From: Balanoglossus misakiensis
Lineage: Eukaryota > Animalia > Hemichordata
Reading direction: 5' to 3'
Length of the DNA: 64,000 nt
Assembly (NCBI GenBank): GCA_040954595.2
Contig: CM082592.2
Location: 7,241,677 to 7,305,676, forward strand
This document shows positions 7,824 to 62,589 of this stretch, piece by piece (positions within the stretch are counted from its first letter, which is position 1; each line of letters opens with the position of its first letter). The notes below the pieces were generated by a model. That model had not been told where the DNA came from. It saw only the letters and a list, made by a program, of their open reading frames with translations, and ran no database searches. The translations under genes and the position numbers were made by a program.

Positions 7824-10800
7824 GAAATAGGCTCCCACTGGTGAGTATTCATTCTGTTCCGTCTGATAGTATCAGAATCTTGTGATCTTAAGGAGCCCTT
7901 TCGAGAAATTTTACTGTATTTTGGAAATTTGAATGTCTATAGGCTTTCATGTGTAATGTCTGTCACTGTTCTTCATCTCTAACAGAATTGGTCTTGGGTG
8001 TGCCCAAATAACCTCAAAATGCAAGACAAAAAAAATGACGGTGCAGGACTTTCGATGTAACCTCCATTCACCATAGTAACAAGGGTGTAGACATAGTGGT
8101 AAAATTTCAACTTTTTTTCATTGTACACAGAATCTGGCATTTACAAACTATGAGTTACATGTAAAAAAAACCCAATCAAAGGTCAATTTCAGTATCTGTC
8201 TGTAGTAATCTGTACCATAACATTTTGTATTTCACTGAAACCGTGCTAGGAATTGTATTGTGTTTAAGCAATATTTTTATATTGTATTTAGTTTCCTTTT
8301 TCTTTAGTAATGCTCTTTTTTCGTGGGTGTTTTGTAGAAAACATCAGATGGTGCTGAGATATTTATTTTATAACCATAACAGTCAAGTACCATTGTAGAG
8401 ATACTTATGCATTAATCATTGTCCCAAAATTCGTTGCTGAGTTCATATTGTGAGGGATTGGTACATTGTTGCCGATAATAAAAGGTATTCAAAGGTATTA
8501 CAGTTGAATAAAATCAGGTATCATTACTGGTACAGTACTTGTGAAATTCATCATGTCACACCAAAGTATATGGTCTTGCGACGCACACTTGTCCATCAAC
8601 CTCCATTTTGACCTATCAGTATGCTTTATCACAGGACCCTGTTGACATTACTGACAGACACCAAAAAGTAGATCATTCAAATGGATTGTCAAATGGGAGT
8701 ACATGTACTGTTTCATCCACAGACAATTAATTTATGCAAATTATATGCATGTGAGGAACACTCAGCAATTTAAATATACAGTAACACCTGGCCATCATCA
8801 AAGAAACAGGTTCAAGTAAGGTCACAATTATATTTGTATTGAATGTAAATTATTTTTGTCACGATAGTCAATTTTGAATGCTGTTTTGATACTTCAGTTT
8901 TTGTGAAGAAATAATTTTACATTATGGTGATAAAATATGTTAATCTATGCATTCCAGGATCATATATATGCAGCAAAAAAATTATTGAGTTTGATATTTT
9001 ACTGGCATAGAAATACAACAAAGGAATATGTGCAGATACATGTATCTGAATTCTGTAGTGTGTAGGTTCGGTTATGAAGGTAGAAAGTCAAGGAGGTTTT
9101 TGTTCTTCCATATGTCTGTTTACTTCAAGTATTAGATGTAAACATTTACTTCCCAATCACCATGACACGTACCACAATAATTGTAAATGCCTGAATTTTA
9201 CAGTGTGCTTTAAGTTTTTACTCGGTATTGAAGAACTGCCTTCAAAAGTTAACCAGACAGTCATTCATGATTTTCTACAAACTCATTTTTCCTTAAAATT
9301 CACGTTCCTACTGCCATGTGGATAATATGGATAAAAACGTCCAATCATCTTGCAGTTAATGAGAAATGCAACATTTGCCTTTCACAAAATTGCTTGAAGT
9401 GTAACAACATTTATGAGAACTTTTCACCAAACTCTGTCCTCTGACAAAATTTGTGTGCCTTAGACGTAATATCTCAGTAGTGTGTACATGTATTACGGTT
9501 GTATAGCATGCAATGCAGTATGACATCTTGCAGATGCATTAACACTTGTCGAAACTGAACACCACCTAGCAACTGTGTAGTGTGGGACCCACACCTGCAG
9601 AAGGGATGACACTCGCCCTTTAAAGTGATAGTAACTTCTGAAATCACTGTTCACAGTCTACAGGTTTCACTACATCTAGTCTTTCAGCACTGACATGAAA
9701 AAGTAATTATCTTTTGTAATATAGATCTAAAACATAGTTTTTGTACTAGATATGTACGTTTACTGACCCTGTTTGTACACAGATCAAAGTTTAGAATTTT
9801 TTCGTTAAAAGTAAAACCCATGGAAAACAAACTATGCCATGATGGGCGTGTGGTAAACTTGTTTTACCATTAGTCACAGCGTATCATGGTCATTATTTGA
9901 ACATTTTTGAGTTTAACACATTTTTTGTATGTTACACATTAAAACCATATTTTTAAGAGAACATGTTGTGGTGTCCGCTTTCGTTCTTGTACTTTTGTGA
10001 TGATGCAGTAAAGACAAGCATTATCACCTGGAAACTGAATACTTCATTAAATGCAGCATTTTAATCGCAAAGCGTATTCCATCGGATCAAACGAATGGCA
10101 TGTTTATCATTATGTAATAAATATACAAGACAAAGTTATTTAATAAATATTGTTTAACTAGAGTGAAAAGTAAATGCTTGAAAAAACCCCGAATAATGCA
10201 AATATTCCTTACTTTAAATAGGTAAATCGTCATTGATGCAGCATATTGGCGAGTATAATGGCGTTTGCAGTAGAAGTCCTGCCACCAACGACACGAATTA
10301 GGTGTACCCCTTGTTTAAATTTTCAGCTGCGAGTGGTACAACGAAAGTTTGCGCAGAGTGTAAATTCTGAACACCAATAATAATAATAAAAATAATAAAT
10401 ACAAATAAATAGAATTGCTGTAGTCATGTGACTGAGAAGAATTTAAATAGAATAATTTTAGTACAAACGATGTTTGATGGTCAATTGAAATAATGCAGTC
10501 ATAAATAATTTATATTAAGCATGAGTTAGAGCATAATAAATATTCACACAATAAATAAGGACACATTAAAATGTGTGTATCCAGTTAAAGTAATATACTT
10601 AGTTTTGTTTTCTTAACACCAAATTTAAATAACGATTTCATAAACAAAAAAAAATGAAATCAACGGTAAATGCGATTTTTCATACATCATGTTACAATAA
10701 ATTATTACAAGCTGCTCACCGTCGCAAAATGCGACTGTTTGCAAGAATGTACGACATGCAAAGTTGTCGTAAATGGGAACCTATACCCATTTACGGCAAC

Positions 10801-10999
10801 TGCAAAAAGCTTCACTCTTTTCGCCCATAAAGTACGCATACCCTTCACAACGAAAATTACGACGAACAAATTCAACATCTGGAGAGAAACGAGCCGGAAA
10901 TTAAGGTCAGTCGAATCTGGCGAAACACGGCGTGGTTTTGTACAAAGGGCCAACACCCTAAAATCTTTAACGGTACAAGGCCCTTGGTCTGGAAGCAGA

Positions 11000-13900
11000 C
11001 TATATTCTGATGTCACCGTTGATGATTTTCAAATACGTGCTGCACTCCAAAGGCACGTAACTCTGGGCCTTGTTGTCCATCCAAAACAGCGGGTCGGAAA
11101 TCAGACTGGGGTCGAAGCCTTCGTTCATGAGATCAACTTTCTTCTGCTTAAAGGTGCCCGTGTGGGGAAGGTTGGACTTCAGTCGGAGGAAACGCGGAGA
11201 CGCGTAGCTAGGCAGACGCGATGTCGCGTGCTTGAAAAGACCGGGAAAGTCCAGCGCGCGGTCGCCATCGTCATCGTCATCACACAAGGAGATTGCCGCC
11301 ATACCAACTTTCCCGTAGTGACCTTTTGGAAGATCGGGAAATATACTTGATTGATATTCATTCATGTACAAGACTGGATGTAGTTTGTCGATTCGAGACT
11401 TTTTTTAAGTCAGTGAAGACATTTAAGTCTTGTTCCAAGCAACCACAAAACAAAGATATCTTTTAGCCTAACTTACCTGGGACAGTAACTCCATAGACGC
11501 AGGTTTCTTTAATTCCGTCAAATTCGGTCACGGTCTGGGACACCTCGGTCGTGGCGACATTTTCGCCCTTCCATCTGAAAACGAATTTAGAAAGGAAAAG
11601 TTATTAGTCAACTAAAGAATATTCATTATTTTAAACGTGCCAGAGCTCTCAGAATTTCCATAAAGGCGCATGCGTCTCCCTCTCTCGTTGCCTGTAGTCG
11701 CCTGGCAACTGATATCATGTGACCTCGCTAAACCATCACTGACATTAAAAAAAAAAGAGAGTTTTACCTGAAAGTGTCGCCAAGACGATCCTTGAAATAG
11801 AAGAAATTGTCTTCATCTTGCATAAGCAGATCTCCGGTGTTGTAGTAAAGATCGCCCTCACGCAAGACATTATTCAAGATCTTCTTCTGTGTGAGCGATT
11901 TGTTGCCAACGTAACCTTCCAACGGGAACATCTTGGTGACGGGACACACCAACAGACCGACTTCGCCTTGAAATAAGAAAAACGTGCGCGAACAGTTATT
12001 TTTTGCACGCAAACATCACTCTCAGTCGTTTGACGTCGTCGTAAATTTTTAACTGAGAAACCAGGTGAATCAGACCAGTAACCATAACGACAGCGCTTAC
12101 CTGTTTTCACCTTGATACATCTGCCGTTTTCATCTCGGAGAGGCTCAGCTGATTCGTAATCATATTTGATGAGTTCAATCGGACACAGAGTCTAAAAATT
12201 AAACCAAACAAAATGCATGGTTAAGCCGCTGATTCTTTCGAATCGTCGTCTTTCGCGGCCATTCATGCTATTTCCGACCGTTCCTCAACCAACCAACCAA
12301 CCAACCAAACAAACGTCATCTTCTATACTTACTCTCAGAAGTGGCGACCAGCATCCTACCGACCCAACTTTGTTGTCGACGTTCATCATTCCAAAGTTTC
12401 CCTCCGTAGCGCCGTATGTTTCCACGATCTGCGGGATGTTGTATCGTTCCTGCACCGTCTTCCAGATGTCTGCACCGAGACCGTTGCCAACAGCCAGACG
12501 CACGCTGTTCTCGCCGTCTTTTTCCTCCTGATTAAAAAATAAAATTCCGTTAAACACGTGGTATATTTTTATGAACTTGGAATTGACAACGTGTAGTAAA
12601 CCCTATATACCTCGCAATGAACGGATAATTGTCGATTTTTAATAACGTTGGTAATTACCTTTGGTCTTGCCAGCAGATAACGGAAGAGTTCGCCGATGTA
12701 CAAGATCACGGTCACTTTGTGTTCGCGACAGTCTTCCCAAAAGTGAGTGGCGGAGAACTTGTTTCTTAGAACGACGGTTGCGCCTACCAGAAATACATGA
12801 ATCAGACAGAAAATGAAATACACGTGACAGTCAAGGTAATATCCGTGAAACATTACTATAGTATACTATATATTACGGTTACTCCCCCCCCCCCATCTTA
12901 GTTACACCCTTCGAATGGCGATGATTTGCATAAAACTACACTGATGATTTTGGCATGACCATGCAGTGCAAAACAGTAATGTGACACCGAAGTACATGTG
13001 CATGCGAACGAGGTTGTGTCAAAATGATTCTTACCTGCAGTAATGGCGTTGGCCAATCCGATAAACAGCGCTGATATGTGGTAGAGAGGCATAGTGATGT
13101 ACAAGACATCATCCGAGTTGATATCGAAGAAAGAAAGCAAGTGGCCGCCGGCCAAAAGTTTGTAATGCGACAGCCTGGTAGCTTTTGGTAGACCTGCAGG
13201 ACGAAGTAAAAAAAGAAAATCAATCATATTCTCAAAATTTAATAAAGGTAGAAATCAGATTAAAATATTCTAAAGACTAAAAGACAACTATATTCAAAAA
13301 TGGGTTTTCAGGTCGGGGTTCCACTGCGATTGGCCGCGTGCACGGTATACTTCAGTCATATTTTTTTTTTATAAAATTGCGTTTTGAGAGAAAATAGTGG
13401 GTGGTAAGTGAATTTTTATTCCGGAAAATACATACCAGTTGTCCCGGAAGTGTAGATGTAAGCTGCTGAATGCTGGAAAGTAATCTTGTTGCGGTACTCT
13501 GACGATGGTTGCTGGTCGCTGGCGTTTCTCGTCATCTCGTCCATGGAGACAGCGCCCTCAGGCAGGTCGTTGCCATTAGCTCCCTGGATCCAGGTACTGA
13601 TGCCGGCTGAACTCAGCTCGGGGAGGATCTCGGTTGCAGCATCGAGCAGGGACTGACCTGGGGGGAGAGAGAGAAAGAAAAGTATGAGATAATACCCGAG
13701 TGCATCGAGAGAACAAAACGTTGAAATTTCTCTCATGGTGCGCCACGCCCATTTGGCAAATGTCTCTTGTAAACGTTTGTTACAGGGGGTTTTGGAATTT
13801 GGAGAACGCTGGACTGACGTACCGCCACTGATCACGGACTCGTCTCCTTTGTATGCGATCTCACAGCACCGTAACGCGTTGATGAGTTCATTGACCGGCT

Positions 13901-16900
13901 ATTCCAAACGAAACGCATTAAGGGATTATTTGTGTCGTCAAGGAGACCGAAATTATTGTTGGCTCTCTCGTCATCAACATAGCTAACAGACAAACAGGCG
14001 AGGCACCGGGCATGCGTTGCTAAGATTGTCTCCTTAATGACTCTTTCAAGCTACGCCCTAGTCACGTGCCAGGTGGCGCAAGAAAGTAGCAAATGAACGA
14101 AGGCATGCCTTTTAAACTGGCATTGTCACGAGGGGAGAAAAGAATAGCTTTTCGGGTCACCGGGCTCGGCATTGTTCAGACTGGCTGATAACAATACCAG
14201 ACAATTGCAAACCTAACAAAAGTTTGCTTTGTTGTGACCAACCCACGGAGATTCGCCTCACAGGCATTCTTTAAAACTTTCTTTTTATTTCATCTCAGTC
14301 ATTTTTCTCTCTTCAAGAGGGGGGCCCCGCGGTTTTTAGATTGGCTCCAAACTCAGGTAAAAAGCGGGCATGGAATTCCGGGGCCCTGGAACTCGATGAC
14401 GCAGTCTCTCGTTGGAACCATACAACGCCGGGTCGGTCATGTACCCTCAGCACAGCAACGCACCGATCGCGACTTGTAAACACCAAACAGTAACAATCAT
14501 GCAGTATAATCTACTGAGTTTTTTTTTTAATTTGCAACAAAAACGTGACCACACGCTTTTCATGACACGCGGTTAATATTTGTTCCGTTACTTTTCTTTC
14601 AGGGTTCCTTAGATTTAAAATGATAATCGCTCCTGTCTCCGAACTTCGTTTGCCAATTAATGTTTTTAATTATATCCATGCTCTTGCTTGCGTCATAAAC
14701 GTTGCATTTTGTTTACGAAATCGTGGTTCGATAGTGCGTTATGGCACGGAGTCAAGACAACTGTCCCGGTGACCAATGTACATTGTAATTGGGACACCCC
14801 ATGACTTCTTTTTTGTACATTTGTGACCTGCCCAGGTCTTGGCCTCGAGCTGCGCGAGCTATGACGTCATTGCCTGCATTCATCCAGGTATTTCTGTGTC
14901 GCGCAAATTTGTTTGTGTTCCCTGTTTTGATTTGTTTTCCTCCCAAACGACTTTTTTTTCTCTGGTCTGGTCTAATCTGTCTTGTTTGGTTGTCGGAGAG
15001 ATGTCGTTCGTTTGAATATTTTGGCTTGACATCAAGACGGACATCTTTTGTAGAAATCTACATTTGCATATTCACCGATTAACCAGATGTTGCCACGGCG
15101 TTTAGGGAGACCATACTTTGTTTACCGCGGTTCAGTCAGTTCGTCTTTTGTCCGCTGCGCCGCTGGCGAGTTTCAGCAAATTTATCACCCAGATCTTCAG
15201 TACAAATGACTCAGCCGTTTTACTATAGCAGTTACCTTCACCTCAAACGTTCGTTGGTGTTCACGGTCATGGGCAGTTTGGAGCCGAGAATGACTATTAA
15301 ATTCTTGTACAAATCGAAGAATGGTAATCAAAGCCTTGCAGAGTTTTATCAAACTTTTTATCGGACCCCGTCCTTGCTACCCGGTCGAAAACGCGCTCCG
15401 CGAAGCTTCGTCACTGGCCGGGCGCGGCGTTACTATAGCAGCCGCGGTACAGAGTCGTCTATGCAAAAAAAAAAAGCCAAAGTTTCACAATTACGTGGAA
15501 TAAAACAGAAATATTACACTTTTTCTAATATCCTGCCAAAATGCGTCACTGCGAATGGGTTTACAGTAAACGCTACGCTGAGTAATACTGCAGTGTGTAC
15601 CGTACCCCGGGCCGCCAGGCACCGTTACTAAGTACGGCAAGATTTGTTTTATAGCCCACCCAGGCACGCGTCTCCCATATAAAAGGCATCTTCAACTTTT
15701 CATGGGAAAGGCATCTTCCAGCCGATGCGACAAGTGTTCCTTGCTTATCAGAAGGCACCAAAAAGATGAAAATTCCTTTTTGTCCGGGAAAGAATTCATT
15801 CCCGTTTTCTTCAAGGAAAGACGGGCTATATATTTGTGTATCTCTTGCTCCAGTTTTGACAGTGAAGTTTATGAGTTTCTGGACCTATTTAGGACAAAGA
15901 CGTAGCCGCGACTCTGAACTCCCGGTTGTCGTTTTGAATAAAACGCTCCAAATCATGCGAATTATGACCATGGCGGTGAAATCTCAGCTCATTGAGATTA
16001 ATATTTGCATTTAATTTAGTTCAACGACGAGAAAAGGCGATATCGTCTGCAAACATGTTACGTGGCTCAGGGGTAGTGACGCGTACCTCTCACCGAAGAT
16101 TCACTTGCGATCTGCGTCATACTTGACGTTGTCAGAAAACAAAGGCCGTTGGGATGACAACTGTGACATCGCGACAACTTTGACCAGATAGATATGTCAA
16201 AAGTGCAACATTTTCAAATCCATGCAGTTGACGTGAGCGTTTAATCAATAGCGCAACAGCGTAAAAGGTATGGGCGCAGAGCCACGCGTGGTTCGTGCGC
16301 GCGTGCGTCTCGCCCCGTTGCTAAGGAAGCTCCAGTTGATCTACATCGCGTTAGCGCGATCGGTGTAGTTTTGGTAGCCTCGTCTCTCTCTTTCGGAGAG
16401 AAATGCGAGGGCATAAAACAACTATCGTGTCGAATGCAAAGCCAAAGGCGAGCACGAGATGTGTAGATGCCGCGATGGACCTAGACTTAGAATTGTCAGT
16501 GATGGAGGCCGGGTTCCTCGTGCACACTTTCCCCTAATTAGAGACCGTGCCACGGGCATCGCGCGGCGCGTGCAGCCAGAGTAGAAGAGCGCGATGCGCG
16601 CAGACTCACCTGGTCCCACGATCAGCATCTTTGCCTTGCAGACTTTGAAGCAGTGGAGCAAACTCTTGGAGCGCAGGTTGAAGTTGAGCAACGAACAGGT
16701 GACGCCGATCTTGGCGAGTCCCAGGAAAGTGGACACAAACGCCGGCTCATTGTTGATGAGAAGCGCCACTATGTCCCCCTGCTGCAAACCCTTCTGCAGC
16801 GCGGCGTGCGCAACCCGGTTCGCTTCTCTGTCGACGGCGCCGTAGCTGTGAGCCTGCGCCTGGTAGACCAGGAAGGTCTTCTCCGGAGTGCAGCGGACGT

Positions 16901-18373
16901 GGCCTTCGAAGACGTCGACCAGGGTCTGCTGGTGCGGCTTGGCGTGAGCGTGCCGCCACAGCTGCCGCATGACCGCAATCTTGTTGCCGACGAAGCGCAA
17001 GTCGAGCCACAGCCGCGGATACAGCGCCGTTGCAACGATCACCACAACAAACGGCAGGCAGGCAAGCACCACTGCAATCTCCAGCCACATTCTCAAAGGC
17101 TTCTGCAAAAGACAAACAAAAAATTTGCAGTCGGTGACAAGAGTTCCTGCTCCTTGCAAAGTCCGATTTGAAATTAAAGGGCTTATGCGTCAGCGCTTCT
17201 ATTTCTTATAAATTTCGCCAATAAAGGAAATGCGGTCGTAGCTCTATGCAAATAAGCACCCCCTTTGTATTCCCCGAACTGCGTCCTGGTACCGCCAAGC
17301 TTTCCACAACCCTGGGCCGATGTTGGGCGTTCACTGTTAGGTACATTGAGACCAGGGGCTGCTCAGGACGGGCTTGTACAGGCTACATAAATGGACACAC
17401 TGGGCAAAAGGCCAACACCATTCAAAATCATCCCATTATTTTTAGTAGAATTTCACCCCTGCGAACTCGAGAAATTACGCGCAACGCGAAGTGTTGCGCA
17501 AAGTTTTGCCGTGCGGGATCACGGGTCGAAATGATATTGGTGTCTAGTCAAAACCTGACGGGAGATTTAACTATAACGGACAATGCCTAAATGAAGCTTT
17601 CGGGTGGCTGAGATTTCAATGATGCTACCGGATTACACTTGTTTTGTCGAGCAACTTTTGAAATGAAGTTGAATGCTGAGAAGTGAAGTAGGAACTACCA
17701 ACTTTGCCGAACAGTGCCTATTTAAGAAAATGTGCAAAAATTAGGATCATGACGCGTGTTATGTCTTAAAATGAATGAAACAACTAGACCAGAACTTGAA
17801 GACTATTTTCTAGATCAAATGTTGAATTCTTGTGAATCAGATCCGTCTGCTTCGTTTCAATGTCATCCCTTGCGTTGCGTTGCTACATATCGGGGGACTG
17901 GCGTCGTGAAAACAGCCTCAATGTTTAGCCGTTAGGGGAATTTCTTGTACTAGAATGTTTGCAAACGGGAAAGGTATAGTTCACGTTTAGTTCACGAGTT
18001 GCCCAGGCCCGGCATCATTGCGCGTGCTCGCTGGGCGCTCGTTCGCTGGGCTCTCGTAGTGACGTGAACGAGAGCTGCGAGATCTGGCGTATATCCCTGC
18101 GTGACACGCGTACTTTTTCTTCGCTGTCTAAACATAAGTTCCCTTCGCGAAAAAAAGTCAATTTCCAACTTTTACACTAATCACACTTAACAAGGGATTA
18201 CCCAAAGATACTAAGCGAAGACGGCGGAAACTATGCCCCTAATTCTAACCACAGAAGATAGTGAATTTAAACTGAACTGAAGTTGACGATCTTCCGGATT
18301 CGCAATCGATTCAACCAACCAACACACTTACAGGGGTAAACCATGTGTCCGCCACAGCTAACGAAGTCTCCAT
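11000..18373 (-). CDS. Fatty-acid transport protein / very-long-chain acyl-CoA synthetase, SLC27A family (exons, minus strand: 18373-18332, 17102-16610, 13657-13436, 13193-13035, 12783-12659, 12527-12333, 12191-12101, 11966-11768, 11574-11477, 11322-11000)
   Basis: AMP-binding motif [17 protein letters not shown] motifs [52 protein letters not shown] and TGTFKQKK; N-terminal hydrophobic anchor. The 42-nt first exon ([14 protein letters not shown]) is in frame but less certain; the alternative start is MWLEIA at ~17090. Confidence 0.95.
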
Positions 18374-21300
18374 CTTGATGGTAATTTCGAGCACAGTTTT
18401 TGACAAGTTGATGTTTTTCGATCTTTCTGGCGAGTTTAGGTTTGCGAGACTCTTATATATTCGCGGCGGGCTTCTCGGATTGGACAACGCGTGTTACGTC
18501 CTTGTTGACATAATCATGCGTGAAAAAAATCTCACGGCCAATGCCATTTGTTGTACTCCGCACCCTTCTCTGTCCAATGTGTTTACTACTAGGACTCTCC
18601 GGATGCCAGTTTCAATACAAGCAAGGACAAAATGTAGGACTCACAATAATCGGTAGTCTGCGCCGGTCAAAACCCGTCTGGCCATCACATTACAACTTTT
18701 GCGTAACAGATCATGAAAAGGAAAAAAAACGTGGTCTGGTCCCACGACCATTTCCTACACTGGTAAAAAACGACATCATCAACCACTAAGTCTAACTCAA
18801 GTTTCTGGGCTCTCTTTCTCCCTGCTGTATCTCTCAATAGTGGGAAAATATATTTCATTGAAGCATTACTATGTTTTCTTTCTAACTCTGTCCTATAATA
18901 GCCGCGTTGAGGGCGAGGTGTAAATTCACACGTGTCTTTAGTGATGAGGTGTGACCGTTTTTACGTAATATCGACTGCAGGGTGTCTATAGATCTGGAAG
19001 GAACTGCCCAAGTACACGCTCATCAACCAAACCGATCAAAACACGCAACGTCACGGATCCTTGAAGAAACCTTTGCAAACGCGCGTCGTTGAACTTGAGT
19101 AAATAGTATATACGACGACAACGTAAACAACTTTCCAAGGGCCCCTTTTGATTTCGCTAAAAGCCCACGGTGTGATGTCACAGGACTTTGAGCAATTCGT
19201 GACGGCCGTGCGATCAAAAGACGCCATCCTTTTGTGATGTCACAATGTCAAGAACGCAACGAAGTCTCGCCCGTTTTGTCCGGCAGTGATGCTGATGGTG
19301 GTTGTAGTGGTGTGTGCGAGCTCTGTCAATGTCCCCCTCTCCGTCTATCCGTCTCTCTCCTCCCCCCTGTGTGTTTCCCCATCTAAAAACATGGTGGAGA
19401 ATCCGAACAATTAAAGGTATATGATCACCTCGAATTTACATACGGCGCCCATATACGGCAGAGAAAGGGCATTTGAGTGTTCTAAAACATATGGTGACGC
19501 TCTTTTTTCCGCGTGTGCCACCCACTGAAAATCTGTGATTGGCTAGATCTCGATTTGGCATGGTAACAGTAGCTAAATTTGCATAGGTATATCTTAAAAG
19601 TCGGCGCACGCGCGCGCACACTGTGCGTTTAGATTAGGACTTGGTATAATGTCATTCACCTGTCTACGCGCATCTACAAAGGGCTTCTGTGGGACACACC
19701 GGCAGTTTCACAAACGTGCCCGAAGTTTACATCCAGTACTATAAGATGTTATCCACCCCAGGGGAGAAACGATCAAATGAGCAAAGACAACCATAAACCC
19801 TTCGTGACGCAAATGCTTTTCTGGTTCCTTTATGCTCAAATTCGATAAACACATCAGAACTTGTGTACGTGTGGCCTCGAACATTTTTTTTCGAATCGTT
19901 ACAAAGGCCACGTTGCTTACTTCCTTAGACAGGTACCTCGCAACAGAGCAATCAAACGTTGAGTTAAATTCAACAGAGTATGGGTAAATTTTGTGTCTTT
20001 TTGACATTACTTCGGTAAACGGTTTGTTCATACAATTTCCGCAAGTCATGCCGGAGAAATAGGTGACGTTGCGCAATACGGTCCCTGGCATGACTACCAG
20101 TTTACACGTGACTGTGGTATGGACACATGCAGGCACATAGTGGCCTGTCTGAACACGTGCAGATTTTAGTGTTAAAAACAGTGTATACGTTTTAGGTGAA
20201 GGTCGGTTCTGATTTCAGAAATAGGACCTCATTATCTGTATTTTTTTAAGCACCTGGACAGAATTAACGGGAAAGGACGGGCGCTTAATAACCCCAGCGA
20301 ATGAAGTCCGTCAGAACTATGGATTTGACCCCGCCTGCTGTTCCTGTGCGTCCAGAAGTTAACTATAGTGGCGTTGAAAATTGCTATTTTGCTTCGAAAA
20401 TGCTAAAATCAGTGAAACATCATAACCTGTGCAATAAAGTGAGTGGTCACGTGCACCTGGATGGAAAAGGTCGTCTGAACTGCGCATGACCCGCGCTAAA
20501 TCGTACGTCAAGCGTGACATGAAATAATACCATGTAAACGAATTCACAGGTATTAAGAGGGGGTTAAAAAGAAAAAAAATACGTGGCTTTTTGGTGACCC
20601 TGATTTTGTTGACCTTGGGAGCTCGTGCGATTGTGTTTGACTCCTGGCACACGAGTTGTTGTCACTATGGCAACCGTAAACATGGATTGTAACACGTGAT
20701 TGTAACATGATAGGTCCAGGTGTAGCAGGCCAGCCGTAGAAAGTCCGATTCAACTTTGTTTGTAAGGCGGAAAACACCTTGTAATCTTCAATGGTTCATC
20801 AAAAGCAGGCTGGAGAAAGCAGTGAAAAGACAAAAACAACATCGACCTGCTTGGGCTCCCATTGCCCCCAAAGAAAAAGAAAAATCAAGAAAACATTACC
20901 ACGACACTGAAGACTAATTTCGTACTTATTATTATGATCAAATCACGGTGGTGGAGATTCGTTATATTCGACAGTTTTAGGTTTATTGCCATAGTAAAAC
21001 AAGATTCACATTGTCAGAATGCTGCTAGCGATATGATTGACCTTTCACGAAAGCGTACTAGTTTTATTCCTCGAGGGTGCCAGCTACCATTTCTTTGAAC
21101 CCGGCTTTTTTGGACAGAATAAAAGCCATCATTGTAACGCGAGCTCTTTAAATCCACGTGACACCTTGCGCGCAGAAATATTTTTCACGGTGAGATGTGT
21201 GCATTGTCTGTATTCCTGCTTTTGTTCTCAATATGTGTGACCTTGGCCTTAATCCCACCTCGCCCCCTGTAAATTGTGGCTTTGTTCGGATAAAAGACGT

Positions 21301-22875
21301 CGTATGTCCTCTACTGCTGTCATACTCAAGTGTGGTACCGTCTATTTTAAGCTCGTGGTACAAACTTTCTCTCGCAGCAGGCATATGCATGATTAGGTCA
21401 GAATAGATACGACTGTACCTGCCTTCTACTGCCTATAGTGTGGTCAACTTTACATTTTTAAAGGTCCAACTTTTTCAGTTATTTTTTAAATGAGTATCAA
21501 CACTATCTTCTGACGGGACAAATGGGGTCGAGCTAGCGGGAGCTTACTATAGAAGGGACCTGGTTCTGGGGGTCAATGTACTTTCCATCTGTATGCATGT
21601 TTGATCGCGTGGGTTCGTTCGTCTTCGCCCGCCAAGGTCTTGCTCTCCGTTTGGGAGACTGCGGTCGAGTCTACGACCCGTGCGAGGAGCGGACGATTGA
21701 ACATCGAATATGAAGTTATTTGCTCGTGAAGATGAGGGATGCAGCAACCTCGATAGAGGGCGCGCGGTTTGCGCATAGACCATTGATCGCAACAAGAAGC
21801 CCTACCAAAGTTGAATCGTAGCTGCACGTGGCGGAGTTTTGGTATACAGCACATACCACGAGTCTATATCAACCTCGAAAGCGTGACCTGTTTGCAAACG
21901 CAGTCGGGAACAGAAAAATAAATGTAATTTTCTCACCAATCACGCAGGCGTATAAAGCTTCTCCTGTCGAAATTTCCATCCATCGCAGCCTTGCACAAAC
22001 TTAGCAAGATGCACGACAAATTTTGCCGCAGATCTTGCTGAATATCGTCGTCGTCTTCTGCAGTGTGGTCAGTTAACAAAACACGTGCTGTTTTCACTGA
22101 CCAATAAAACTCGGGCTCTTATTGCATTCCCTCTAGGTTTACAACTTGTGCTTTCTTACTAAAGGTGAACCGTAATATAAAAGAATAATTATGAGAGAAA
22201 CGCTGTGATTGGTTTATTACTTTCGAAGCATCTGTGACCACATGTCCATGGATACATAGTGTACAAATAGCGTCAAGGACACTTTGCTCATAATTGTTCA
22301 AATTCGGTACATATAAGACTACCAAATTCCAATACAAACAATTTCGAAATCGGTGTTTTCTGTTTCAGTGCGATCTGATCGAACGTATGCGAATATAGTC
22401 TTGATGCTTTGTAGGGGGGAAATAGTAAGCTTTGGAGACATTCTAACAAAATTCATAAGTGGGACGGTCGTGATAGGTCTAAAATAGTGATCCAATCATT
22501 TTCCCGGCGTCGACTTTAGTCGCATACGACGTCCCCCATGCTTCGTTCAGACACCGTTAATTAACACACCACGAGCGTGTGAATGGGTTTGTTTGAATGC
22601 CGACATATGAGGAAAGTCGTAATTTACACGAAAACGCCAGATGACGTCGCCATTCTCGCGAGCACGCAAACTTTTATTCCTATACACGTCATTCACACCT
22701 AGTAAACAGAGGCTTTCAACCGAAACCCAAGCTTTGTGTTGACTTTGTTTCCCCTTTGATATTGGAAATGGAACTTGTTATGCAACGACACTTTTCCTGT
22801 CTCCATAGAGACCTGTAATTGGTCATTCAGGAGTGTTCTCGCCCCCCCCCCCCACCGGATGAAAGACGATCGGCT

Positions 22876-22969
22876 TATATAAAAGGGTAACGTTGTTTTT
22901 GAAAGTGAACATTGACCAGCCGGACGGTGCTTCCTCCTTCTCGGCAACTGTTTTCCAAAGCTTTCTAAG
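22876..22969 (+). promoter_or_regulatory. TATA box and non-coding first exon of the secreted peptide-precursor gene
   Basis: TATATAAAAG at 22876, then a strong donor AAG|GTAAGG at 22969/22970; a matching acceptor TGTAG|AAG at 24751/24752 lies just before the ATG. Confidence 0.6.
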
Positions 22970-24773
22970 GTAAGGAATAAACCGCTTACTCCCATAATTA
23001 TTTTATCGCGCTTGATTAGTACAGTTTTTATCGTGTTATTCTCTGAGAAACAAGTTTGTTTACGTTATATGCGGGAATTGACGATTAAAATTGGTTTTGC
23101 GAATGTGACGCCACGACGCCCACCAAGTTTCATTCTCGCTCTCCGCAATCAGTTTAGCAGTCTTTTGTTACGTCATGTGCATCAGCTGAAAAAAAGCTTG
23201 CACATTTTGATTATTCGTATGACTCACTTTCTACGATGAGAAACGTTTGAATTTAAAATGGCGAATTTACAGCTTATAATCACAAACCCGTGGCGTCAAT
23301 GCCTGGGTTCAGTTTTATCGTCGACCCATTCGCGAACCTATAGACTACGCCTTGGTTCTGTTAACCACCTGTTGATTTGACAGGGCGCTGAGGCAATGTC
23401 CCGGATGATGGATACAGACGCATTTCATCACCCAGTAGACAGACAAACAAAATCGTTCTGTATACAGAAGTGCATTAGCGCTTCTGTTTCAACGTGTACA
23501 CGGATTCTACAGTTATATGTGATGTCTTACATTACTCAAAAGATCTGTACCGACTGCCATCGACCCCACCCCTGCAGTGCAAACAATCTATGCAAACGAA
23601 AACGCCTGTTAGGCTTATTAAGTCAAGAAATGTTTGTGCACAGGCTGTACCTGTGTACGAAAATGACAAAAATGCCCTTTCAGCGATTAGGGCCTGTTAA
23701 TATCATCAACGGCTGGGATGGGCCGTATGAGCATGTTTAGTTAAATTTAGGAGTGAATTCCAGGGCCTGGGTAACACTTAGCACTGTGGGTGCAAGCATT
23801 TCGATGCGTTGTGCTAATTGTACAGAAGTGGTCGTGCTGACGTTAAAGTATCTGCATGTGCTGTAACCGATGCAAATACTAGTATAGAATAATACTGGTC
23901 GACTCTGTGACATCATCAGGACATGTTATCCGCAGTCTTTGACGACTCAGTCACGCGAAACAGATTTACACCATGTCTACACAGCAACTCAGCATGTATG
24001 CCCCAAGGGTCTAATCTCGATAATGTCAGCCGTCGTGCCAAACAAGTTTTCATCCAACGTAATGAACGCCTTTTTAATCTTTGAAAGGGTGACGGCGATT
24101 TTAAGAATACAGCTGGTTTTACATGTCATGTACAGAACACCGAACTATATCCGTCAAGTCATGTAAACGAGTCATGTTTTAAAACACTGATAAGGAATGT
24201 TAGTATCCGCACTATAGAAAGTAATTTAAAAAGACTGTTTTGAAAAAAGACAAAGGCAGCCGAACGCACAATACGCACAGCCCACGAGGATTTCGTGTTA
24301 CGCATTGCAAACTGAGGTAACAACGTCACATTGTACGTGCTGGTCAATTCATGCGCATGACAAGACAATCAGACTGGAATGGGGGTGACTGAGTTCCAAA
24401 TGATCAGCGGAACAAAACAACGAAACAAAAAAGACGAATAATTCCGTCGTGTCGTGGAGGTTACATTCCACGGTTACACACACCAGGGGCTAGAGTTATG
24501 CAATAGACCTATCAGTTGACATTAAAAGCCCAGCTTTGTCACAACCATGTAAATCAGGCACTGGCTTATACAAAAAAATGCAAATTAAAATAGTTTACCC
24601 CTTTAAAAACGCCACGCGGAATATGAAAGGAACCGGGGAAATCGGCATTTGCAGCTAGCCGTAGAACATATCGATAACGTGGAAACCACATACACTCTTC
24701 TTTATTGATTTTCGCATCTATCGTTTCATATATCCCCTTTGCCTGTTGTAGAAGCCGAATCGGTAATCTCAAA

Positions 24774-27449
24774 ATGGAGACCAACCTATCAATTGCCATC
24801 ATTCTTTGTCTCGTGGTTGCCACGGTCCAATCAGCTGCGATTGGTAAAGAGCGAAGCATTCAGAAACGTAAGTTGAACACCTGTGTTTCTCGTAATTAGC
24901 ATAATAAAGTACAGATCTGAATCAGAACCTGGGGTTTTGGCCATGGTTGTATCTTCTCGTATACATGCCAAACCCCAGACCGTTTTCTCGCGAAGCACGT
25001 GGTTTTGGCATATGAATATCGACAGTCACACGAATATTATCTCCCTTTCCTCCAGGTTTCGGCTGCTTTCGTTTTCAATGTTCGGACAACGAAGTATGCA
25101 AGGAAAACCACTACGGAGAAGCCTACTGTCTTCCAGGTGAGGATTGTTCATGTCTCGTTTGGCAATAACATTCCCGCTTTATTCATTTGGTAGATTTGAC
25201 TGTGTATAAACGTGATCAGACTTTACAGTATTTTACTTGAGTAAAAAGCCACGTATTATGAAACAAACCCGACACGTGAGAAGCTGTCAATTCCCAAATT
25301 AAGTTTTGAATGATATGGGATCTTTAGCGGTGTTCATTTTTAAGAGTACCAAGTTTACAGCATCGTATACTGATTTGAATGTCGTCACCGCCTTGATAGT
25401 CACAATCTTGTGTTTTTGTGTTTTTCCCCCCAGCTGATCAGTCAGGTGCCCAGGGCAGCAAAGGTAAGTGGAATTTTAAGTTGAAAAAAAGAAAGAAAGA
25501 AATACTTTTGTGTTGCATTTTGGTTAATTGCCCTGTCCTGTCATTTTACCTGTCTAGACTGGAAAATTCACAGTCCTACTCACAATTAAATTGTCACTGC
25601 AACACTTCTCATATTATCCTCTTCCAGGTCGCGAGTTTATCAAAAGACTTCTTGAAGTTCTAGAGTCCAAGAAAAGCGAAGATCAACAAAGCTACAAGAG
25701 ACGTAAGTACCACTTGCAACAACAATATCAAAACACAAAACACAATGTTTGCAACTCGTTTGTCACATCCACGACTGTTCAAAAACCGTACACCCCTATT
25801 CAGTAAACTTAGTGCCTTGAAATTTTGTAAAAGATAAGTAATTTGTAACAATCTGACGTATCTCTGTCTTTAATGCAGGTTTCGGTTGCAATCACTACAA
25901 CTGTGGCGATGACGAAATGTGTCTTGAAAATCGATGGGGGGAGGCGTACTGCGTAGACGGTAAGTAATAGATTTAGTTGGACATCCATAATACAAAGAGC
26001 GATCATGGTCCAGAGAATGATTCACCATACAACGCACGTGAAAATAAACGAATGGCTACGGGGTCTCAGTTGATGGCAGGGATGAACTATGAAATCGATC
26101 TCCCACCGAAGAGCCCCTGCATTGAGACAAACCAATAGCAGAAGTCGACATTAATAATAACTACGGACCACTAATAACAGAGACATTGTTCATTTATGAC
26201 ACGTAATGGTTTGAATGGACAAATGATCATAATATTGTAATCCACCAATTTGCATAAGTGGGTATTAATGAAGTTGACGAATATTTCTGGTCGGATTAAC
26301 TTTCAGATGATACACCCGGCGTCGGCAGAGGAAACGGTAGGTGTATTGGTGACTCGTGAAAGATCAAAAACTTTACGGAGTATATTACAAAAAGAAAACC
26401 GTATGATTACTACTTCTTCAATGAAAAACATTTCATACCCAAAGACTGAGCTAAGAGTGAGCGAGGGAGAGAGGGGTGGGTTAGTTGGAGGGAATGTCTT
26501 TATGGTACAATCAAAATGTATGCCACGCTAATGATGTGTGTCTCTGTTTGCCAGCGTGTGTTTTTATCACGTGACACGGCAAACATTTTACAATAAATCA
26601 TTCTCTGTTTTGTGTTGTTTTCAGGCGAAAAGCGAAATTACGACAAACGTAAGTTGTCTTTAAGACGCTGAGAATCTTAAATCATGTTACACGTACTGCG
26701 TTCCTCGGTTTTGTGCAAGTTAGCTTTCTATGTTCATGAAAGCTTAACATGTTCTAAAAAGAAGTTAACTCGGAAGCACGTTTTAAAAATCATTTTTTTT
26801 CTCATTTGCAGGTTTTGGTTGCCATCACTACGACTGTGAGAGCGGTGAAATGTGTCTCGAAAATCGATGGGGAGACGCTTATTGCGTGGATGGTAAGTAT
26901 TTTTTTTTTGCGATTCAGAGCACACGTGTGTTCTTCAATCGCACACGTGCGCTACAAATAGTTTTAAGGCGCAACACGGAGATTGTCACACACAAAAAAG
27001 TTTCCCAAATTGCTACCGAAGTTAATGTTAATTTTTCTGCATTTCAGAAAGCATGCCAGGCGCTAACCAGATGAAACCGGTAACTATACATTTATCACCC
27101 TGTTTTGTTAGGATGTTGAAAATATGTACAGGATATAATCTTAGCCACGTTGACAGATCGTAGGAAGCACTGCTTCGACCATACAGAGTCGACGTTCATT
27201 GTCAAGGCGTGGTCGAGGGTCCAGGCCTATGTTTTCAGTGACACATGAATCGTCTTGATAACCAAAGCGTTTTAACGCTGTTTTTGCCATAATGTACATA
27301 CTAGTATACTTGGCATGAAAATAAACTGGCAAAAGAAACCTCAGAATTGAATGGTTTCTTTTCAAACCATCTCAAAGGATCTCAGAAAAATTTCACTATT
27401 TATCTTCTGTGTGATAATTTTCTTGCAGGAAAACCCCAGACAGAAGTAA
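24774..27449 (+). CDS. Uncharacterised secreted polyprotein precursor, 182 aa, with three FOLN-like 4-Cys peptides (exons 24774-24867, 25056-25136, 25434-25463, 25628-25702, 25879-25959, 26307-26336, 26625-26648, 26812-26892, 27048-27079, 27429-27449)
   Basis: All ten exons have canonical GT-AG ends and splice into one open frame: METNLSIAIILCLVVATVQSAAIGKERSIQKR-FGCFRFQCSDNEVCKENHYGEAYCLPADQSGAQGSKGREFIKRLLEVLESKKSEDQQSYKRR-FGCNHYNCGDDEMCLENRWGEAYCVDDDTPGVGRGNGEKRNYDKR-FGCHHYDCESGEMCLENRWGDAYCVDESMPGANQMKPENPRQK*. Signal peptide present; AATAAA at ~27600. Confidence 0.85.
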
Positions 27450-27934
27450 CTTGTCCTTGGAATAACCGATACAGACGTTCAAAAGGGAAAATCAGAAATA
27501 TGTGATCATGCAAACAGCTTCATTTATACTTTCAGTTTCCACTCTATTCTTTCATAAATCGCGGTGCTCACAGGACTTATGGTGTGGTTAACTTTGCAAA
27601 ATAAAGTTGATTTGATAAAGAAAAGATAAGTCTGGCTTCTTGTTTTTTTTTCACTCAGAACCGCTTCAAGAATCAACCATCACCATCGATGCAAGAGAAA
27701 TTTAAGTTTCACATATACAATCGTAGTACTCGGTTATCTCTCGACTTTCACCATCACATCGCCACCTGTGTCCCGCATTTCAATGCAATATTGATAAAAT
27801 ATGATTAATTACTGGGTTTCCAATATAGCACCAAAGAAGTTTAGGACAAATAATATCCTTGTTGAGGTATCCATTGTAAATATTCCTCAGACCCTGTTAT
27901 TATTTGGTGATGGATCACTACATTGAAGTGAATA

Positions 27935-30900
27935 TCACCTAAAGTCATCAAATCCAGGAGGTGGTTTCACAGGTTTATTATGGTGTACAGTCCTGTCTTT
28001 ATTGTCCACATGTTTTCCTTCAAATCCGGGTGGTTTTCTGATGGGTTTACTTTCCCTCTCACGTTCAGACGACATGACTCCAAATCTAGATGCTTTCTCA
28101 GAGTTCCCATTCACAGAAGTGGGTTCACATTTTACAGGCTTCTTTTGGCCATCACTGGATGCCGCAGTTGTTTTGTGGCCCGATTTCTCACACTTAGTTC
28201 CTCTCCCAGTGGTCTTATCATGCCTTTCTGGACCCTGAGACTTGTCTCCTGTAGGCTGGTGACTTTGTTGTCCCGTGGGGGGTTTCCTCTGCTGAAATCC
28301 AGGGGGTGGTCTTATAGATCTTTTATTTCTGCTGTCTCTTCCACTCTGTGATCTTCTATCCCTCTCACCACCCTTCGACATCGCATCTGCTTCCGGATTA
28401 TCATCAAGGTGGTCCTTACGCCTTCTGTGGTCACTTTTATCATTACCATCCTTCTTCCCGGACTCCATTTTCCCAGCATGCACCTCTCCATCTTGGCTAT
28501 CATTCCGTTCACCCTGCCTGTCCCTGTATCTCTCTCGTCTCTGTCTGTGGTACTGCGCACTATCCTGCCTGTATGTCCCATCATACGGCCTGCCACTTCC
28601 ACCACCACCCCTCCCTCTATGAGGCTGATGGTATCTCCTGCCACCCGCACCTACACCAGGCCTGTCCCTCCGATCTGCATCACTTCTCTCCTTCTCTCCA
28701 TTGACCTGTTTTTCATCTTTTGGCTTCCCTCCATATCCACCCTCCTTTGCAGTCACACCCACACACTTGGATCCTTGCGCACCATCTCCCACTGCAGTCT
28801 TTTCACACACAGCTTTATCATCCGAACCCTGTCTTGACGTTTCTTTTTTCGATGCCTCTCTTTTCTGTAAATCACCAGATTCGCTACTTCCTGACTTCTG
28901 GTTGCTGTCTTCCCTCGTTTTATTTCCCTCCTTTCTGAACCTATCGTCTCTAGCAGACACAGCTCTGGACCTCCGATCCGATCGTTCGTGATCGTACTTC
29001 CCACTTCGAGGCCTATCCCTATCATGGTACTGTCTTCGATGATGCGACCGCCTGTCGTATCTGCCGTCTTCTCTCTTGGGATGCTGGCCGTCAGCTCGTT
29101 TTGAGGTAGACGATTTGTCCTTCGTTTTCTCCAGTGATGCGTCCGTCTTGCGCTCCGTGTCACTGGCATCCGTGTTTGCGACCTGATCCGCCCTGTCAAC
29201 TCCACTGGGATGAGTTTTGGGCACAGACACAGTGACTGTGATATCAGGAGTCTGCAGATAAAAATGACCACAGGACCAGTTAGTAACTGAGTGAGTGATC
29301 TTCCTGAATGATTGAACCCCACGGAGGGGGTGATATAGCCTTCATAGCAACATTGATGATACACATATACAAAATTGTTCAGCAAATTGATATTTTACTT
29401 TTTTACTTACAGCAGAGATATCGATAAGAAATTTATTTTTCTCAGCCTCCACGTCAATGATGGCCCCTTTCTTCATCTGTTTCTTGTACAACGCTTCCAT
29501 CTTCTTCTGCTGCGCTTGCACTTCTGCACTGGGTTTGTACGCTTCGTTTTCCAAGAGTTGTTTGGGAGTTGTGGCTTTTTTGAGTTGTTCCAAGTCGTAT
29601 GACAGCGATTCCCTACACACAAGACATACCACCTAGTATAGACAAATCAAAATCAATTCAACAAATAAAATATATAAAACTTCCTGCTATGTTCACTTAC
29701 AGTGGACATACCACTTACCACTTAGTATCTGAATCATGATAACATGGTTGGTTTAAATATTTTTCTGTGACTCTCCAGAAGCAGATTTTATATTATAGGA
29801 ACATTTCATTTCATTATCATGGCCACTGTGAGCCATAAACTTAAGTTACCTTTTCTTCCTCTTTCTCAGCATGCTCAATGTAATTAGCCAGACAGTGCGA
29901 ATGAAAATAATGATAACATGCCGTCTTTATGAAATCATCTTCTTCCTGCGACAACAACAAAATAAAATGTTAAGCATCTGTAGGAAAACATGAAATCTGA
30001 GATTTCTAGAAGTTGTCTCTTTACTCTACTTCAAACCAATGTCATGGGATGGAGCAATCAAATTACTTACTTGCAATTCATACAGACATATCAGGCACAC
30101 AACACTGGGTAAATTATTGCTTGTTAGACTCTCTTTAGCAAGCTGCAAGAATAAACAATAATATAAATAACAAACAACACGAACAGACTGAGAGATTGAC
30201 GTCAATTGTTAGCCTGTCTATATACAATTTTTCTTCTCTGATGTGCTCACCCTAATGCTACAAAAGTAAATTAAAAGCCAGTTCTACAAATTACGTGTAC
30301 ATGCATTTTAATTGTTCAAGAGTGTTTACCTCAATGAGTTCATACAGCATGGCACCTCCCTTCCTTTCATCAGCCAGTTCATGTAAATTTTTGCGAAGTC
30401 TGCAAGATTCGCAAAATTCAGTTTAGCACAGTTTCACAACCTCTTGGGCCAGCGGAAGTAGTCTTTACATTCCGATGATCACCTTTCAGTATTCAGGTAC
30501 AAATGACTCTTCCTGAGCATAACCCTGCCACCCCCTGTTTCCCTCTGTAGAAGTCCAACTTTACCATTGCAAAACAATAGACTTGGACCAAACCATAGTG
30601 GTGAGAGGTTTAAATCAACACAATAGAAAGGTGCTGTGGATCACTAAGACACACTTACCCCATCAACTGTTCATCTGCAAGGCCTCTTGAGTTTCTGATC
30701 AGTATTTCAGGAACTTGGTGTGGATACTGAAATCAAAGAGAAGCACACCAACATGTTAACACTAGGACAACCAATGAAAGCTATTAGCCACACATGAAAA
30801 TACATTACGCACCAAATTGTTGAACAGTTTCCAGTCTCTCCCTTGTGAACACCCAGCTTTACACAGTAAAATCAGAATAAGAATTTCATCTGGATTTCTG

Positions 30901-46120: not shown

Positions 46121-46264
46121 TCGTCGTGAAAACTATCCAGCGGAGAAACCCTGTTTCGGGACAGAGTTTTCCGCATCCTCTCCGCAACACGTCCTACATG
46201 CAGCAGCGTGGTCGTCACTTATGAGAATGCACTGAAGGCTAGACGGAAATTTCTCCAAGTGGAG

Positions 46265-61541: not shown

Positions 61542-62589
61542 AGGGTTTATCTAGGGCACAAATTTCACGTGATTTTTGTCTTGTTCCTTTTTCTTATGTA
61601 TTTCATTATTATAGGCCTATATTCATGGTTGGGAGATGTATATATTTAATATCATTTTGCTATTTGATGTAACTCAACGCAAGAATTTTAGGAGACGCTC
61701 TTTTGAGCGGATTTAGCTTGTGGAAGGAAGCGTATGCGCACAATAACCGCTATGACGAGGCAAGGCGATCCAGCGGCTGTAGATAAATGAAGAATTTGCT
61801 CGCACCAGCGATTTGTAGAAACCATAAAAAGTAGTAAAATCGCAATGCTTTGTCTATCAGAGATGTTTTAGCGATTCTTGAAATCGCTATATTTAATTGT
61901 AGGAGACCCGTATCAATTAATATGCCACCTCGGCCTTCATGATCATTTATGCAAAACTTTGCCAGGTTATTTGCGTCCTGAAGAGGACAATAGTGAACTT
62001 GAGAAATGTGGTGCGTCGTTGATGCGACCAAAGTCGGAATGTTGCGGCAATAACGGGTATACACTTTTCAATTTCTTATCGCACTGTGTGACGACGACCA
62101 CAAACGTTCGTGTAACAGTTTGACAAGTTGCGGTGATTGCTAAGTGGTCGCTCGTTGAATTGAAGTTGCCTGCGACCTGACCACTGCAGGCGACTGACGT
62201 GTATTATACTATAGCCATTTTCTTGACGTTGTGGCACTAGAGTTTCAAATGATTTCCTATATTGTATATTCTCACCCCGACATGTTTTAGTGTTTTATAT
62301 GTGAGCAATAAAACGTGGTGAGTCAACTCATGCTGGCATCATTTGCGTGTTGTTGTGTGTGTGGGGGGGGGGTTGTTGGGTTGTATTAAAAAGGGGTATA
62401 TTTTTCACTAAGAAAAGTACGTTGCATATAAAATCTGACTTTCTCGAATCTGACTTTTTCTGTCATTCTCAAAACGTTTATAGTTCCAGTACGTCCTTTT
62501 CGCAAAGTTCTGTTGCATTGCGCCCTCATGCGAGCGCCGTCTCGAAAATGAAAACGAGGCTACACATTCCTCGGAAGCTCAAAACCAAA

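Follow-up and report, generated by a model that had tools for sequence, protein, structure and literature searches.

The window considered here is a stretch of 64,000 nucleotides (nt) from the hemichordate Balanoglossus misakiensis (GenBank assembly GCA_040954595.2, contig CM082592.2, positions 7,241,677 to 7,305,676, forward strand), in which positions 24774-27449 of the plus strand hold a gene divided into very small exons. Judging from its sequence, it belongs to a family of multi-copy, prohormone-type precursors of four-cysteine peptides that resemble the FOLN module and the disulfide-directed hairpin (DDH). The family has so far been found only in acorn worms, and its function is a predicted one.

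Ten coding exons of 21-94 nt, assembled from splice signals listed over 23500-28800, sum to 549 nt and encode 182 amino acids plus a stop codon. The initial annotation had proposed precisely such a gene, invisible among the open reading frames, and was borne out in this: all nine introns (155-349 nt; the first eight in phase 1, the final one in phase 0) are of the GT-AG type, no plus-strand open reading frame of at least 100 amino acids covers the gene, and the spliced model is colinear from end to end with Ptychodera flava XP_070572111.1 (isoform X1; 96/182 positions identical, E 2e-73), which is likely its orthologue.

The first coding exon (24774..24867, 94 nt; 14/31 residues identical to P. 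flava, as for the fractions below) provides the start codon, a signal peptide predicted to span about residues 1-21, with hydropathy peaking at residue 5 (3.35), and a short pro-piece that closes with the Lys codon of the first KR site and the opening base of its split Arg codon; it is preceded by a probable 5' untranslated part of the same exon (24752..24773) behind an acceptor with a pyrimidine tract at 24751. Each module occupies its own 81-nt, phase 1-1 exon, and the preceding intron splits the Arg codon of the basic site in all three cases: module 1 (subtype A) lies in exon 2 (25056..25136; 17/27), module 2 (subtype B) in exon 5 (25879..25959; 20/27) and module 3 (subtype B) in exon 8 (26812..26892; 21/27). 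The basic sites QKR, YKRR and DKR in front of them are as initially described. Exon 3 (25434..25463, 30 nt) is a linker micro-exon, and exon 4 (25628..25702, 75 nt; 10/25) encodes a spacer with a predicted amphipathic helix, a non-conserved KR together with KK, and the KRR site ahead of module 2; the helix is predicted in the model of the orthologue (amphipathicity shuffle p 0.056). Behind module 2, exon 6 (26307..26336, 30 nt; 7/10) encodes a DTPGV-basic tail that also stands out by column conservation and probably holds the C-terminal end of the mature module 2 peptide, whereas exon 7 (26625..26648, 24 nt; 4/8) contributes a spacer with KR plus the KR site ahead of module 3. The tail exon 9 (27048..27079, 32 nt) exceeds its apparent paralogue, exon 6, by 2 nt and has the donor furthest from consensus, and exon 10 (27429..27449, 21 nt including the stop) has a good acceptor and is the least certain part of the model.

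With regard to P. flava, exons 1, 2 and 4-8 are thus backed by identity and exon 3, at 1/10 identical residues, by position only, while exons 9 and 10 (3/11 and 1/6, the latter without homology support) are hardly supported. On the sequence evidence, the gene is real and its coding model confirmed, with exons 9-10 unsupported. As exon 9 also has the least consensus-like donor, and as P0006-P0009 among the relatives close with a tail that is acidic, rich in Leu and longer than that of the window gene, the 3' end of the latter may be derived, reflect an error in the assembly or have been mis-modelled.

Translated in six frames, the 64 kb window contains the spacing C-x4-C-x5-C-x9-C three times, in each case within the gene, as compared to a mean of 0.09 over 100 Markov-resampled windows (91 with none, 9 with one). 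Between the three module exons, replacements are rarer than silent changes (pN/pS 0.19, 0.37 and 0.47, uncorrected, 26 codons each). A module-profile search detected no further module, and hence no paralogue, in the window; a tblastn match at 22568-22509 on the minus strand (E 3.7) was missing from that search and was dismissed as chance.

For the transcript ends, the initial annotation had named a TATA box, a non-coding exon 1 and an AATAAA. The last is present at 27600..27605 (plus strand), 150 nt past the stop, as candidate polyadenylation signal. However, the canonical TATA[AT]A was not found in 23000-24760, which contains variants only, for example, TATAGA at 24213, and the non-coding exon was not located, the candidate donors upstream of 24751 being weak. 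The good acceptor at 24751 nevertheless suggests that an upstream exon exists.

Relatives in acorn worms and anatomy of the module

An exhaustive HMMER search of 1.84 billion protein representatives returned seven matches at E <=0.001, five of them with the module; P0011 and P0012 were dropped as low-complexity repeats without the four-cysteine motif. The relatives thus recovered comprise a P. flava protein with four modules (XP_070572111.1/XP_070572112.1), a P. flava paralogue with one (XP_070571959.1), a Saccoglossus kowalevskii protein with two (XP_002735971.1; P0008; LOC100369922), a Glandiceps talaboti protein with one (XP_077996192.1; P0009) and a JGI/IMG protein with three, encoded on a 957-nt contig in an uninterrupted frame that suggests a spliced transcript. 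A three-module profile returned a single candidate, P. flava XP_070572112.1 (E 4e-50), and a word search with a wider alignment scored four proteins from 7999 candidates, all known already; it missed P0010, so its sensitivity is limited. Every relative that carries a species name is an enteropneust (acorn worm); there are three such species in all, each with 1-2 genes found, and the genes contain 1-4 copies of the module. The two P. flava isoforms (X1/X2) differ by an 11-residue insert at the position of the 30-nt exon 3 of the window gene. In S. kowalevskii, both modules are identical (26/26 residues), possibly because an exon was duplicated very recently, through gene conversion or as a duplicate in the assembly.

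In RefSeq, the family is present as uncharacterised proteins only, none with a functional name. Searches by accession, locus and motif found no description of it in the literature, of which mostly open texts were covered, so that absence from print is not proven. The family is likewise not mentioned in the available passages of PMC6188537, PMC10508912 with its supplements, PMC13554239 and bioRxiv 10.64898/2026.04.13.718258, and excerpts of neuropeptide surveys of starfish, sea cucumbers and crinoids (PMC4772807, PMC6586643, PMC9793003 with supplement) yielded no candidate with the spacing C-x4-C-x5-C-x9-C. The crinoid four-cysteine candidates PCNP6 and PCNP7 (PMC9793003 supplement) have different spacings, and the 'four cysteine' passages seen in the starfish survey concern orexin and insulin-type peptides only.

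The six proteins, including the window gene, contain 14 modules, all of which stand directly behind a dibasic site at -2/-1 (13 KR, 1 RR); the site is also kept in the single-module members P0009 and P0010. Residue P6 is basic (K/R) in 12/14 modules, and none has an internal dibasic site. A hydrophobic N-terminal stretch is found in all six proteins (hydropathy peak 2.9-3.8), and both structure models have an N-terminal helix; the prohormone-type layout claimed initially was therefore upheld across the family. Within the modules, residue 1 is always aromatic (F in 11, Y in 3), and no variation is seen at Gly2, at the four cysteines or at the Gly and Tyr located four positions and one position, respectively, ahead of the last Cys. 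The last loop invariably has nine residues, its Glu and Asn each being present in 13/14 modules, and the net charge lies between 0 and -4, with no module cationic. None of the six proteins has a Cys outside the modules past residue 22 or a Kazal part. The spacers are acidic (14-29% D+E), Cys-free and at least 21 residues long, each ending in a dibasic site.

The KR-bounded spacers and peptides of 30-45 amino acids expected by the initial annotation apply to the window protein, where the distance from module start to the next dibasic site or protein end is 41, 38 and 43 amino acids, but not to the family, in which it ranges over 38-68 and only the N-terminal site is conserved. In eight of the 14 modules, the first basic residue follows 9-11 residues past the last Cys, mostly behind a DTPGV-like motif. 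Non-cysteine positions of the modules are identical to P. flava in 38/60 cases versus 48/110 in the remainder of the protein. In a small tree, modules 2-3 form a group with those modules that are repeated in other species, separate from the first modules (ultrafast bootstrap 86).

Predicted fold and closest known systems

The AlphaFold2 model of the four-module P. flava protein, computed without alignment, has a mean predicted local distance difference test (pLDDT) score of 55.7, yet displays a hairpin in every module; that of the single-module paralogue (8-row alignment, mean pLDDT 69.7) has a beta-hairpin in the module (pLDDT 70-87). Foldseek ranked follistatin first for the four-module model, with 24 columns superposed on hevin (1.1 Å) and on follistatin Fs1 (1.5 Å). 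For the single-module model, FSTL1, KASH2, follistatin, hevin, CREMP, FSTL3 and granulin fragments were matched at 0.6-2.0 Å and E >=0.27, KASH2 at rank 2 (root-mean-square deviation 0.9 Å, 19 columns, 47% identity, E 0.45). By sequence, the best PDB matches were CREMP (E 0.0088), granulin-1 (E 0.076) and KASH2 (E 0.36), the last compared over KASH2 residues 7-25 only, with a one-residue gap and with the C-x5-C loop and the G-x-G-Y-C end in common. Module 1 of the window gene aligns without gaps to hevin (7KBU) over C-x4-C-x5-C-x9-C (E 0.48), and PDB profile searches gave no match for A1, only hevin (E 2.1) for A3 and none for P0008.

The FOLN match sought in Pfam did not materialise, as no PF09289 row appeared at E <=10 for window modules or relatives, and Pfam assigned no family to the three module exons. 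CopK on P0007 (E 8e-6) and weaker Pfam matches on the relatives were judged spurious, and the precomputed label PF25960 of P0005 was not returned by a local Pfam scan and is not listed for P0007-P0009. All ESM Atlas feature matches stayed at <=0.80, the Atlas model of the single-module paralogue pointing to the same follistatin-type clusters below the naming bar, and VIA-align found nothing at Z >=5 among chains of >=30 residues, a size that KASH2 does not reach.

Going by the models, the module resembles a FOLN/DDH hairpin, yet is not a formal FOLN member; its disulfides would be I-III and II-IV, as borrowed from SPARC FS-E (PMC2895596) and KASH2. The initial description as FOLN-type was thus right with regard to spacing and predicted fold, in a protein free of Kazal domains, but the spacing is not peculiar to FOLN and also covers CREMP and C4C modules (PMC3068167). 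In comparison to the FOLN domain (PF09289) of follistatin, FSTL1/3, SPARC and hevin, C-x4-C-x5-C-x9-C is shared and local superpositions of 24 columns reach 0.6-1.5 Å at non-significant E values, whereas the acorn-worm modules lack a Pfam FOLN match and a Kazal neighbour and have their own exon with a convertase site in front. SPARC FS-E, as presented in PMC2895596, is a synthetic peptide and no natural product.

The closest known system, by analogy of precursor and fold, is that of the starfish Asterias rubens, in which KARTESH (KASH1, KASH2; PDB 8V2M, 8V2U) and CHUPA1-3 consist of a signal peptide, an acidic pro-region, a dibasic site and a four-cysteine peptide (PMC11891777). This free four-cysteine hairpin behind a convertase site had been overlooked in the initial annotation, which recognised no known neuropeptide family; the relatives themselves are indeed all uncharacterised. 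KARTESH and CHUPA are upregulated in coelomic fluid after injury, their DDH fold was ascribed to convergence and their function is given as unknown (PMC11891777); neither follistatin nor hemichordates are mentioned in the available parts of that paper. The common precursor layout is clearest in the single-module Glandiceps protein, and KASH2, a beta-hairpin with I-III/II-IV disulfides by nuclear magnetic resonance, superposes on the predicted model. On the other hand, the starfish precursors have one mature Cys-rich region each, as compared to 1-4 modules with acidic tails here, and KASH2 is possibly amidated and has an 8-residue last loop, versus nine residues and an invariant aromatic-Gly-Cys start in the acorn-worm modules; at E 0.36, homology is not established.

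Tandem four-cysteine modules without Kazal domain also occur in CREMP of the avian eggshell membrane (C-X4-C-X5-C-X8) and in C4C proteins of the slime-mould spore coat, whose X6-10 range the acorn-worm module fits (PMC3068167). These are structural, cross-linked proteins, with short linkers in CREMP and no processing sites mentioned in the accessible text of PMC3068167; long module runs with short linkers contrast with the 1-4 modules and spacers of at least 21 residues found here. Insect pacifastin-related precursors combine a signal peptide with several disulfide modules that are parted by dibasic sites and vary in copy number by exon or gene duplication, but their modules are protease inhibitors with three disulfides (six Cys), as compared to four Cys in 14/14 acorn-worm modules (PMC2689174). 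Within the ambulacrarians, the sea-urchin EGIP precursor yields several EGF-type peptides at dibasic sites, its six-Cys EGF modules being unlike the four-Cys modules of acorn worms.

Processing, signalling and competing explanations

Cleavage of the precursor by convertases at the dibasic site ahead of each module appears highly probable, given that the spacers drift whereas the site never varies, not even in genes with one module. Since single-module genes retain it, repeat duplication does not explain its conservation. A basic P6 residue furthermore favours convertase cleavage. The precursor would enter the secretory pathway via the predicted signal peptide, two disulfides would form per module and prohormone convertases would cut directly before each aromatic residue, freeing three two-disulfide peptides of predicted beta-hairpin fold from the window protein. 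In the eight modules with a single basic residue 9-11 residues past the last Cys, a presumed monobasic cut would set the C-terminus there and yield peptides of ~33-35 amino acids. Presumably of neural or endocrine source, these would act as neuropeptide- or hormone-type signals on a conserved receptor, possibly a G-protein-coupled one. For this reading as a whole, that is, a convertase-processed precursor whose peptides are endogenous signals, we put the probability at somewhat below one half (about 0.45).

An endogenous ligand is favoured because of the low gene number, the conserved non-cysteine surface residues, the invariant free N-terminus and the acidic charge; the conservation of module residues may reflect a partner that is itself conserved, and not an arms race. 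Module 1 and modules 2-3 seem to persist in the different species as two distinct peptide subtypes, so that one precursor would give rise to two related ligands. An isolated FOLN module can be bioactive, as SPARC FS-E has a half-maximal effective concentration of ~10 pM and loses its activity upon reduction (PMC2895596). Saccoglossus expresses the convertase PC2, and its neuropeptidome has been described as incompletely annotated.

Several points weigh against the peptides being endogenous signals. The 14 modules have neither a conserved downstream dibasic site nor a conserved Gly-basic amidation motif. A conserved C-terminal cleavage or amidation signal is usual for most short neuropeptides, though not obligatory. 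The KR of exon 4 is missing from the orthologues, and support is low at most nodes of the module tree. The amphipathicity of the spacers gave shuffle p values of 0.019-0.69, below 0.05 in two of six proteins; amphipathic helices are a known sorting signal in proCART (PMC3602189), and amphipathic sorting helices in the spacers are weakly supported here. Both structure models are of low confidence overall, and for neither did Foldseek return a match at E <=0.001. Moreover, KARTESH as closest precedent by analogy stems from injury-responsive coelomic fluid and not from nerve.

This last point leads to the main rival, unlikely as it is by our estimate, namely that the family represents the hemichordate counterpart of starfish KARTESH and CHUPA, cleaved in the same way, its peptides being released from coelomic or blood cells as humoral factors in injury, wounding or immunity. 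The precursor plan is the same, with a mature four-cysteine peptide of 28-48 amino acids in the starfish (PMC11891777), echinoderms are the sister phylum of hemichordates and KASH2 is both the second-ranked structural and a weak sequence match. However, neither KASH2 match is significant, granulin-1 and CREMP score better by sequence and the last loops differ in length (8 residues versus 9 in 14/14 modules). No named echinoderm protein is among the seven profile matches in 1.84 billion proteins, and in the sections of PMC11891777 at hand homologues of KARTESH/CHUPA are reported in echinoderms only, with variable loops.

Decidedly doubtful is a more far-reaching synthesis, in which a FOLN subdomain of follistatin/SPARC-type proteins would have been set free, with a phase 1-1 exon to itself and a convertase site in front, and so become a new ambulacrarian signalling system. 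One branch of this system would be the acorn-worm family and the other KARTESH/CHUPA. The DDH fold of KASH2, regarded as 'convergent', would then be that of a released FOLN, and the peptides of acorn worms would constitute a neuropeptide or hormone family not described so far, which comprises two subtypes of ligand and has an orphan receptor.

It is improbable that the peptides enter the epidermal mucus and have an external function, be it as pheromones, predator deterrents, toxins or antimicrobials. The toxin and antimicrobial options raised in the initial annotation are disfavoured because of the net charge of 0 to -4 in 14/14 modules, unlike that of cationic antimicrobials, and the strong conservation between cysteines. 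The conserved inter-cysteine residues and the low gene number set the acorn-worm family apart from typical toxin families. Atlas look-alikes with Toxin_12 or Cyclotide reach only 0.77. What speaks for an external role is that several lineages duplicated the module independently of each other, that the hemichordate epidermis is highly secretory and that disulfide-directed hairpins are known as arachnid toxins (PMC11891777).

Finally, that the modules are extracellular binder or structural units like FOLN in follistatin/SPARC, CREMP or spore-coat modules, with partial or incidental cleavage, is very improbable despite the top Foldseek rows (follistatin, FSTL1, FSTL3, hevin/SPARC), the best PDB sequence match (CREMP) and the inclusive C4C spacing C-X4-C-X5-C-X6-10-C (PMC3068167), given the dibasic site at exactly -2/-1 in every module, the long, variable, Cys-free spacers as compared to CREMP linkers of only 6 or 11 residues (PMC3068167), the existence of single-module members and the absence of a Kazal domain.

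Genomic surroundings and significance

Downstream of the precursor gene, a low-complexity open frame of 468 codons, rich in Arg, Asp, Gly and Lys and without Pfam family (27935-29341, minus strand), is probably the last exon of a convergent gene; its stop lies ~330 nt from the AATAAA at 27600. The open stretch upstream of this frame (29345-29632, minus) has a weak IZUMO match (E 0.007). On the other side, a multi-exon gene for a long-chain fatty-acid transport protein/very-long-chain acyl-CoA synthetase (AMP-binding; 10670-17189, minus) is divergent from the precursor gene and separated from it by ~7.5 kb (17200-24700) with no convincing Pfam match in the tested open stretches, which may hide the non-coding exon or further micro-exon genes. 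Overall, none of 90 open stretches between 17.2 and 46.1 kb could be assigned convincingly to a Pfam family. The fatty-acid transport protein has its top identity (70%, among four matches) to Glandiceps, in which a single contig of 23,477,501 nt carries both the corresponding gene and the family member; this is weak evidence for conserved linkage.

Further afield, the window contains a BTB-BACK protein, largely in one 455-codon open frame (831-2198, minus), a septin exon near 6.5 kb (6329-6715, plus), an exon of a PAW-domain (PNGase-type) gene (46130-46621, plus), a carbonic anhydrase exon (59230-59550, plus) and an IFT20 exon (62305-62727, plus). The flanking translation of the septin stretch resembles 63007-63414 on the minus strand (near 63.1-63.4 kb), which suggests a short dispersed repeat, and a tandem repeat of 3.3 copies (unit 131 nt, 87% identity) occupies 44671-45104.

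Ambulacrarians commonly have lineage-specific candidate precursors to which no function is assigned, which sets a moderate ceiling to the significance of the family. It does, however, link FOLN modules, C4C/CREMP repeats and the starfish DDH peptide KASH2, which are unconnected in the literature examined. Hemichordates are a key outgroup for the evolution of the chordate nervous system, and some Saccoglossus neurons express no annotated neuropeptide, probably owing to an incomplete neuropeptidome (bioRxiv 10.64898/2026.04.13.718258). The family, in Saccoglossus the gene LOC100369922, provides a concrete candidate for these missing neuropeptides and, if the proposed processing is true, a subdomain of matrix proteins would have been reused as a free peptide ligand through exon duplication.

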